DNA of 64,000 nucleotides. Origin: a virus. The number at the start of each line of letters is the position of its first letter. Position 1 is the stretch's first letter. Positions 30,462 through 30,767 of the stretch are shown piece after piece. The notes under the pieces are model-generated. The model saw only the letters and a list, made by a program, of their open reading frames with translations. It was not told where the DNA came from and did not search any database. The DNA lies in IMG/VR virus record IMGVR_UViG_3300045125_000155; one strand, written 5' to 3'. The translations under genes were made by a program, and so were the position numbers.

Positions 30462-30767
30462 TGGGACCAGAGGGACTCGAACCCCCGACCTAGAAATTCA
30501 AGTTTGTGTAACTTTCGTTACTCCTTGGACTATATCACCACCATGGTCTTGCGACGTTAGGTGTCGGATTCTTTTTCTGGTTATTAAGAGGACTTGACCT
30601 CTCCAGTAGTCTCTGCACCTTCAACCGATGTATCAGTTGCTCGGCTCAGAATTGCCTTCGTCTTTACGTTAAGGTTTTTCTGAATTCTTCCGATTTGCAA
30701 TTTCAATTTTCATTGAAATGTCACCACTCTGATGAGTTTCCAGCTCTGACCGCTGAGCTATGATCCC
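30462..30767 (-). tRNA. tRNA(CAU) (Ile2 or elongator Met) split by an intron after the anticodon
   Basis: Exon 1 30767-30732 ends GGAAA-CT-CAT; exon 2 30498-30462 starts AA-TTTCT; joined they give a 73-nt cloverleaf with G1-C72 (not initiator). Confidence 0.9.
30499..30731 (-). ncRNA. Group I intron (IC3/Azoarcus-like), 233 nt, no ORF
   Basis: 5' exon ends in U and the intron ends in G; core segments GGCAATTCTGAGCCGAGC, GAAGGTGCAGAGACTA and ATATAGTCCAAGGAGTAACGAAAGTTACACAAACTTG parallel the Azoarcus tRNA-Ile intron. Confidence 0.88.

Follow-up and report, generated by a model that had tools for sequence, protein, structure and literature searches.

A group I intron of the bacterial tRNA-Ile2 type in a tRNA(CAU) gene of a probable large tailed phage

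The minus strand of the IMG/VR virus record IMGVR_UViG_3300045125_000155, analysed here as one window of 64,000 nucleotides (64 kb), carries at positions 30767-30462 a precursor tRNA (pre-tRNA) gene of 306 nucleotides (nt) in which a group I intron separates two tRNA exons. Sequence reading gives a spliced tRNA of 73 nt with the anticodon CAU. The gene is laid out as follows, with all positions being those of the window.

30462-30767, minus strand: whole intron-bearing tRNA(CAU) gene (sequence reading, ARAGORN intron mode, Rfam)
30767-30732, minus strand: 5' exon, 36 nt, tRNA nucleotides 1-36, ending CUCAU36
30731-30499, minus strand: group I intron, 233 nt, without an open reading frame (ORF) (Rfam, standard pairs in helices, covariation)
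30498-30462, minus strand: 3' exon, 37 nt, tRNA nucleotides 37-73, with A37 and A38 first

The 5' exon provides the acceptor strand GGGAUCA, a D arm of standard form, GGAAA as the 5' strand of the anticodon stem, and the loop nucleotides CUCAU, which end in the anticodon. The 3' exon provides A37 and A38, the stem strand UUUCU, a variable loop, the T arm, UGGUCCC as its acceptor strand and the discriminator A, with no CCA encoded at the 3' end. Joined, the exons form a canonical 73-nt cloverleaf whose anticodon loop reads CUCAUAA. The insert between them begins CAGAGUGGUGA and finishes CAAACUUG. In an Rfam search of the whole window, the group I model RF00028 matched positions 30506-30743 on the minus strand at 57.0 bits (gathering score 50; E 7.9e-12), and ARAGORN with introns allowed reported a split tRNA at c[30462,30767] with the same 233-nt intron; an Infernal-type group I model and the ARAGORN intron option were among the checks put forward in a preliminary description of this DNA made from its letters alone. 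ARAGORN's own placement of the intron, which produced a 'tRNA-Gln(ttg)', was dropped because its placement within the loop is arbitrary, and we assigned the anticodon CAU and an intron at 36/37 since this is the only placement with a U before the 5' splice site and a G at the intron end. Sequence reading, ARAGORN intron mode and Rfam thus bear out what the preliminary description had seen here, namely a 233-nt insert between the anticodon CAU and A37, an exon that ends in U (which pairs with a G in P1) and an intron that ends in G. Its further observation, that there is no homing-endonuclease ORF, also held: the intron contains few small ORFs, all TTG-started and none above 40 amino acids (aa; longest 40 aa), and the adjacent 302-aa ORF has no endonuclease signal. 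Default ARAGORN, which calls five other tRNAs in the window, and the Rfam tRNA model both miss the tRNA(CAU).

All 91 proposed pairs are present in the window sequence as standard pairs, and every core group I helix can be drawn. In the helix list, n is the pre-tRNA numbering, in which the window coordinate equals 30768 minus n.

n 33-37/43-47 (30721-30735), minus strand: P1, exon UCAU plus the first intron C against GGUGA
n 49-56/61-68 (30700-30719), minus strand: P2, 8 base pairs (bp), GAAA tetraloop, compensatory changes in the alignment
n 75-79/200-204, minus strand: P3, 5' strand 30689-30693, 3' strand 30564-30568
30617-30693, minus strand: P3 5' strand, J3/4 and the P4-P5-P6-P6a domain (P4-P6a domain 30617-30683)
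n 85-90/117-122, minus strand: P4
n 94-97/110-113, minus strand: P5, plus a short extension
n 123-125/149-151, minus strand: P6
n 129-135/140-146, minus strand: P6a
n G155 and 157-161 against 236-241, minus strand: P7, 30607-30613 GAGACUA with 30527-30532 UAGUCC
n 162-191 (30577-30606), minus strand: extra hairpin, P7.1-like, between P7 and the 3' strand of P3 (P3')
n 205-208/226-229 (30539-30563), minus strand: P8, inner stem, GCAA loop
30527-30568, minus strand: P3 3' strand, P8, J8/7 and P7 3' strand
n 242-244/266-268, minus strand: P9.0, AAG/CUU, 3 bp, directly before omega-G
n 247-251/256-260, minus strand: P9, 5 bp, GAAA tetraloop
30500-30526, minus strand: P9.0 enclosing P9, with P9.0 covarying
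n 269 (30499), minus strand: omega-G

The last exon nucleotide, U36, forms with G44 the wobble pair in P1 that marks the 5' splice site, and A156 is bulged in P7, the guanosine-binding helix. P7 had been singled out beforehand as the helix on which the group I assignment hinged, and it can be formed, with GAGACUA and UAGUCC pairing around the bulged A. With the P3-P7 pseudoknot, the P4-P6 domain, P8, the bulged P7, P9.0 and omega-G all present, the insert is a group I ribozyme.

To compare this structure across homologues, we used a search pattern spanning the junction (anticodon CAT, then the P1 3' strand, then the P4 5' strand), which yielded more than 120 stretches from a prokaryote collection of one genome per species together with 9 viral contigs, and filtered the matches with an exon finder that required anticodon-stem, T-stem and acceptor complementarity and a G/A junction. 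The 132 matches comprised 58 split tRNAs (52 distinct sequences) and 74 stretches without a split tRNA, and those of the latter that were inspected were chance matches in coding DNA. Our alignment, made with MAFFT and labelled A3, holds 51 pre-tRNAs (the window, 46 bacterial and 4 viral homologues), and placing the window-derived structure on it revealed that 89.7% of cells pair, as against 35-45% when the partners are slid by 1-3 columns. Both sides change in 65 of the 91 pairs, and none of 500 shuffles matched the observed values. Covariation was seen in P3 (100% paired, 3 covarying pairs), P6a (98.7% paired, 6/6 pairs covarying), the extra hairpin (79-94% paired), P8, P9.0 (84% paired, 3/3 pairs covarying) and all four tRNA stems, and P4 and P6 were paired at 99.7% and 100%, respectively. 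The 6 pairs of P7 are 100% paired and invariant in the 51 sequences, as is P1, whose invariance is in part demanded by the search pattern. For P2, P5 and P9, the pairing values are lowered by MAFFT register errors in length-variable loops. P6a and the extra hairpin between P7 and P3' are present in all 50 aligned relatives, and the hairpin, being shared with all the aligned bacterial members, is not a phage peculiarity. At the intron columns that are invariant in the 46 bacterial homologues, the window keeps 68 of 72 nucleotides, and three of the four deviations are the P4 differences G89A, G90A and C118U, which compensate one another. Such conservation, combined with compensatory changes in P4, reads as the signature of a ribozyme under selection and not of a relic.

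The classical settings of bacterial tRNA introns are Leu.3Ug, Arg.5Ug, fMet.2Ug and Ile2.5Ug (Williams 2020 preprint), with Ile2.5Ug being that of Azoarcus and its classical introns listed as IC3 (Williams 2020). The window intron follows the fifth anticodon-loop nucleotide (CUCAU / intron...G / AA, with U-1 and omega-G) and aligns over its full length with the 46 bacterial introns, and on this alignment we class it as a member of the bacterial Ile2.5Ug class, in a larger-bodied subfamily with P6a and the extra hairpin. A close parallel to the Azoarcus pre-tRNA-Ile intron had been proposed for it, and much of that parallel stands: both are ORF-less Ile2.5Ug introns at the 36/37 site of a tRNA(CAU), both build P1 from the anticodon with a U·G pair, and both have omega-G, P2-P9 plus P9.0, and GNRA loops on P2 and P9. 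The parallel does not extend to the whole body of the intron, however, as that of the window has 233 nt rather than 205 nt and possesses P6a and the P7/P3' hairpin, neither of which is among the helices listed for Azoarcus, whose intron self-splices efficiently in vitro at 37 °C (PMC13168695). The systems differ further in that the host tRNA of the window lacks C4-G69 and C5-G68, and in that the Azoarcus intron lies in a bacterial chromosome whereas ours lies in a probable phage. Within A3, the comparison was made through Rhodocyclales stand-ins (Azonexus, Zoogloea and a Rhodocyclaceae metagenome-assembled genome, MAG).

The nearest bacterial intron found, in a Cytophagales (Bacteroidota) MAG (JAAFJK010000225.1; L165 in our collection), is 69% identical over the full length and shares the same helices, including the extra hairpin, as well as U5·G68 in the tRNA. 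Unlike that of the window, its tRNA has the usual C4-G69, and it lies beside EF-P and aminopeptidase P genes on a scaffold that is a genuine fragment of a bacterial chromosome. Phage introns in protein genes (psbA of S-PM2 and S-CBWM1, and those of crAss-like and Twort-like Staphylococcus phages) belong to the same ribozyme family, with 71-77% blastn identity in the P6-P8 core, but they interrupt mRNAs and many carry or adjoin homing endonucleases, whereas the window intron lies in the anticodon loop of a tRNA, and the anticodon serves as its P1 exon strand. The tRNA introns of Lak megaphages are likewise phage tRNA introns that bacterial-mode tRNA finders do not see; their authors did not class these inserts as group I (Devoto et al. 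2019, PMC6784885), whereas the window intron is a clear group I ribozyme.

Searching for comparable genes, we found by blastn of the locus that Klebsiella jumbo phages match the 5' exon and the first half of the intron. In phage Muenster (MT708547.1, positions 302826-303133; L001 1481-1788), a 231-nt group I intron that scores 104 bits with Rfam splits a tRNA(CAU) at 36/37. The split gene lies in an unannotated 515-nt gap of the tRNA cluster, and its exon matches at 85%, along the whole length, a gene that is annotated in E. coli as tRNA-Ile. The Muenster gene recurs at 83-100% coverage in six more Klebsiella and Escherichia records (KP13-7, RCIP0023, phiKp_21, OU509535, TH47 and Turkey5), none of which annotates the intron-bearing tRNA, and identity of the gene across Klebsiella and E. 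coli jumbo phages is 89-100%. The genome papers of these phages that could be read do not mention it. As in the window, we see here a phage tRNA(CAU) with an ORF-less group I intron at 36/37 that standard annotation has missed; unlike the window, the Muenster group is cultured, infects Enterobacteriaceae, encodes CCA, has an E. coli-like exon and places its intron on a different branch of the tree described below. An HNH endonuclease gene lies about 250 nt downstream of the jumbo-phage tRNA cluster.

Beyond cultured phages, a 16-nt motif of the P7 core occurs on more than 117 IMG/VR contigs, and 12 of the loci that were fetched with it lie inside split tRNA genes, which were read as follows.

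L096: split tRNA, CAU
L023, L035, L041, L056, L071, L072 and L116: split tRNA, Asn-GUU, intron after nucleotide 35
L080: split tRNA, Lys-UUU, intron after nucleotide 34
L101: split tRNA, Asp-GUC, intron after nucleotide 35

The isotypes other than CAU were read solely by the splice-site rule, and two of the 12 calls (L026 and L085) are without an isotype reading. Of all the split-tRNA loci from IMG/VR, 12 were scanned with Rfam, which placed a group I intron above the gathering score in 8, all of them in dense tRNA islands; L041, L056, L071, L072 and L080 are among those confirmed in this way, and L023, L035, L101 and L116 have the motif and the split-tRNA call only. The junction-pattern scan added a split tRNA(CAU) on each of two further IMG/VR contigs, L122 and L124. 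Wide-range ARAGORN intron calls on the related loci were mostly ghost exons and were discarded. One of the Asn-GUU loci, L056, comes from a 436-kb contig and holds about 40 tRNA genes in 15 kb.

We then placed the 51 introns in an unrooted maximum-likelihood tree, for which the bacterial sample is biased by the search pattern. The window intron pairs with that of the Cytophagales MAG (support 100/96), such that the nearest bacterial relative found is from Bacteroidota rather than from Planctomycetota, the group with which a comparison had been suggested earlier. The five viral introns do not form one group, with at least 2-3 label changes being needed, and L096 and Muenster pair together on another branch than the window. 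The window, the Cytophagales MAG, L122 and Muenster were flagged for deviant, AT-rich composition and long branches, and the grouping of the window with the MAG, both being AT-rich, may be partly compositional. Taken as it is, the tree would fit introns that passed repeatedly between phages and bacteria, as it would fit a host among the Bacteroidota, and the interleaving of viral and bacterial introns is likewise compatible with the earlier suggestion of a phage vector for tRNA introns. A stronger version, that large phages routinely carry ORF-less introns in the tRNA genes of their tRNA islands (CAU, and apparently Asn-GUU, Lys-UUU and Asp-GUC) and could spread them between distant bacterial phyla by recombination of phage and host tRNA genes, we regard as speculative and on balance unlikely; under it, the repeat-bracketed intron-tRNA and the tRNA remnant beside it (both described below) would be the scar of such an exchange.

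The tRNA itself combines G1-C72, C11-G24, U12-A23 and the anticodon stem GGAAA/UUUCU. Because initiator tRNA (fMet) genes carry A11-U24 and G12-C23 (Silva 2006), the pairs C11-G24 and U12-A23 show that it is not an initiator. It also has G3-C70, which points to tRNA-Ile(CAU) and away from tRNA-Met, as G3/C70 excludes both tRNA-Met and tRNA-fMet, each of which has C3-G70, and indicates tRNA-Ile(CAU) (Silva 2006). Its G27·U43 is common to 46 of the 52 class members. The other tRNAs of the window, as called by default ARAGORN, are Lys-UUU, Val-UAC, Leu-UAA, Leu-CAA and Leu-UAG, and the codons UUA, CUA and GUA are rare in the window ORFs; the set fits, if weakly, a supplement for rare codons with AUA included. 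Codon usage as an arbiter between Ile2 and Met was not decisive. We consider it likely that this tRNA(CAU) is of the AUA-reading tRNA-Ile2 type.

As for the replicon, the 64-kb window has few long ORFs (longest 346 aa) and holds mostly ORFans with almost no family matches, and the matches that were found are a UvdE-type endonuclease (PHROG 8420), a RIIA-like fragment, a DNA methyltransferase and a DUF4116 protein. Alternative genetic codes were tried as an explanation for the short ORFs, and reading any one stop as sense brought no clear return of long genes. A 12-nt junction motif, GGACTAAANTTT, is present in 26 copies, all on the minus strand (0.02 expected), spanning window positions 2025-41281 and ending at about 41 kb, where GC falls from about 0.47 to about 0.38. 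This motif probably marks one transcriptional module, as a promoter or regulatory signal specific to the phage. The 302-aa ORF beside the tRNA has relatives at 27-35% on IMG/VR contigs of 152-461 kb, and the Atlas clusters closest to it are of hypothetical proteins, with many Uroviricota members; for a second neighbour protein no relatives were found. No close relative of the replicon emerged from a megablast of 20 kb against phage records, from an exact 35-mer in IMG/VR or from two metagenome pattern scans, and GGACTAAANTTT was absent from all fetched related loci, so none of these belongs to the window's own lineage. The window matches no cellular genome of the prokaryote collection searched. 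On these indirect signs we regard the replicon as probably a large tailed phage.

Taken together, we read the locus as a working tRNA(CAU) gene, likely of the Ile2 type, that carries an Ile2.5Ug intron as a neutral passenger, most likely in a large tailed phage, and we assign this reading a probability of roughly 85%. On this reading the gene would be transcribed, probably as the last in a unit that starts at a GGACTAAANTTT copy about 3.4 kb upstream, and the intron would fold into P1-P9.0. Free guanosine bound in P7 would attack the bond after U36, within the P1 U·G wobble, the terminal G (30499) would next occupy the guanosine pocket, and the freed 3'-OH of U36 would attack the 3' splice site and become joined to A37. 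Host enzymes would then trim the 73-nt product at its 5' and 3' ends, add CCA and modify the anticodon, with C34 converted to lysidine so that the tRNA-Ile2 would read AUA. We infer guanosine-dependent self-splicing from the 68 of 72 invariant positions that are kept and from the activity of the Azoarcus homologue, and CCA addition, lysidine modification and expression during infection are predicted in the same vein. The intron would have arrived with a captured bacterial tRNA gene, or by recombination, and would not be an adaptive device.

Several points weigh against this reading. Everything after folding is deduced from homology, and the Rfam score of the window exceeds the threshold by 7 bits where relatives reach 85-108 bits. 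Directly upstream of the intron-tRNA there is no sigma-70-like promoter on the minus strand. C4-G69 and C5-G68, which 49-50 of the 52 class members have, are replaced by A4-U69 and U5·G68, and without them the Ile2 identity of the tRNA is not secure; moreover, AUA makes up 12% of the Ile codons in the window ORFs. Finally, hallmark phage genes such as those for terminase, major capsid, portal or tail are missing from the 64-kb window, and searches of IMG/VR and of metagenome contigs turned up nothing closely related to the replicon.

Some of these points would suit other explanations. If the intron were a decayed, non-splicing relic and the tRNA gene a pseudogene, one might expect an Rfam score just above threshold, signs of rearrangement at the locus such as the flanking inverted repeat and the adjacent tRNA remnant, and a long end branch (0.52) in the intron tree, all of which we see; yet the core conservation and the compensation among three of its four changes speak against decay, as do helices that consist entirely of standard pairs (including the P1 U·G, the bulged P7, P9.0 and omega-G) and two intact exons that give a perfect cloverleaf. 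The low score is explained by a 36-nt insertion relative to a model whose seed sequences are all non-bacterial (RF00028; Williams 2020), and we consider a relic very unlikely. We give equally little credence to an adaptive intron that gates tRNA maturation or keeps host anticodon nucleases away from the loop of the precursor, the latter being an idea raised in the preliminary description. The recurrence of group I introns in several phage tRNA isotypes within tRNA islands and the conservation of the gene among Klebsiella and E. coli jumbo phages (89-100% identity) could be read in its favour, but the same intron class occurs in the housekeeping tRNA-Ile2 genes of many bacteria with no such role there, and no defence or counter-defence gene is linked to the locus. 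We found no support for nuclease evasion, an idea that is weak from the outset: once spliced, the tRNA presents an ordinary CUCAUAA loop that is exposed like that of any tRNA.

The remaining alternatives concern not the ribozyme but its setting. The host gene might be an elongator tRNA-Met, with the intron class having moved to, or been inherited by, another CAU isoacceptor: ARAGORN labels the spliced product so by its anticodon, the TilS determinants C4-G69 and C5-G68 that are near-universal in bacterial hosts of the class are replaced, the window exon has no E. coli match where the Muenster exon matches E. coli tRNA-Ile, and AUA codons are not frequent. Against this stand G3-C70, a negative discriminator for tRNA-Met and tRNA-fMet (Silva 2006), the G27·U43 shared with most of the class, and the fact that the C4/C5 determinants are not universal and vary with TilS type (Silva 2006); the other window tRNAs, which supplement rare A-ending codons, make AUA a better fit than AUG. 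An elongator is the likeliest of the alternatives to our mind, though still a doubtful one. It would be a different matter if the replicon were a region of bacterial chromosome, a plasmid or another mobile element, which would make this just another bacterial tRNA intron. The lack of any structural or packaging gene in 64 kb, a heterogeneous composition (GC 0.36 to 0.57) and the absence of the record from IMG/VR could be taken that way, but the window is without housekeeping genes, its sole family matches are phage-type, it consists of dense small same-strand ORFans behind the 26-copy junction motif with scattered single rare-codon tRNAs, and the neighbour protein family lies on viral contigs of 152-461 kb and in Uroviricota-dominated clusters, so that we judge a non-phage replicon improbable.

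In relation to earlier work, what seems new here is the presence of group I introns in phage tRNA genes, the ribozyme itself being an ordinary one of a known class. A review found all phage group I introns then known in protein genes, despite the many tRNA genes of phages (Hausner 2014, PMC3984707), which agrees with the view from which the preliminary description had started, and the 'enigmatic' Lak megaphage introns were presented as the first report of introns in the tRNAs of phages (Devoto et al. 2019, PMC6784885). In the literature we searched, which excluded most subscription journals, we came across no account of group I introns in the tRNA genes of phages. The loci gathered here show classical group I tRNA introns in phages, among them seven jumbo phages of Klebsiella and E. 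coli that are in culture and in which the gene is unannotated. One consequence is that default tRNA finders undercount the tRNAs of phages, which affects inventories and any codon-supplementation argument that relies on them. Another is that splicing, and lysidine modification of a phage tRNA-Ile2, can be studied at the bench in the cultured phages. The interleaved branches of viral and bacterial introns also turn the lateral spread of ORF-less tRNA introns by phages into a testable idea.

The immediate surroundings of the gene contain three further features.

30777-30805, no strand: inverted repeat, upstream arm, 29 nt (repeat finding)
30429-30457, no strand: inverted repeat, downstream arm, 29 nt (repeat finding)
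30435-30395, minus strand: tRNA-like 3' half, 41 nt (sequence reading)

The inverted repeat brackets the intron-tRNA with one mismatch (97% complementary), occurs in the window in these two copies only (0 expected) and forms the closing stem of the minimum-free-energy fold of a 431-nt region (z = -9.1). Flanking inverted repeats are absent from L096, L122, L124, Muenster and the Cytophagales MAG, and we ruled out, from these five related loci, that they are a general feature of phage intron-tRNAs. The 29-nt stem could be a processing helix of the RNase III type, as in rRNA operons, or a recombination scar, in which case it could stem from the event that truncated the neighbouring tRNA. The tRNA-like 3' half consists of the loop UUGUCAA, the stem strand GGCUU, the T arm GUCGG-UUCGAUC-CCGGC, the acceptor strand AUCUCCC and a final A, with its loop-like start UUGUCAA also being the outer 7 nt of the downstream repeat arm. 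It has no 5' half in the window and no informative counterpart among the related loci, and it is probably a tRNA remnant. A GGACTAAANTTT copy follows it at 30374-30385. Since the nearest copies of this motif lie at 34190 upstream and at 30385 just downstream of the intron-tRNA, the gene is probably the last element of its unit, which would also hold the tRNA-Val at 31844-31773.

Two minor observations were made further upstream. For 35362-35757 (minus strand), the intron mode of ARAGORN reports a split tRNA whose 301-nt insert encloses a complete tRNA-Leu(UAA) at 35651-35723, and Rfam finds no group I intron there. At 32318-32338 (plus strand), 19 of 21 nt match the P8 segment of the intron, which lies on the opposite strand; a second intron or intron remnant at this place was rejected, as Rfam reports nothing there at a cut-off as loose as E 10 and the resemblance is lost after about 25 nt. 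A minus-strand transcript of 32318-32338 would be complementary to P8, and the chance expectation for such a match is, as a rough estimate, about 0.004 in the 3-kb region.

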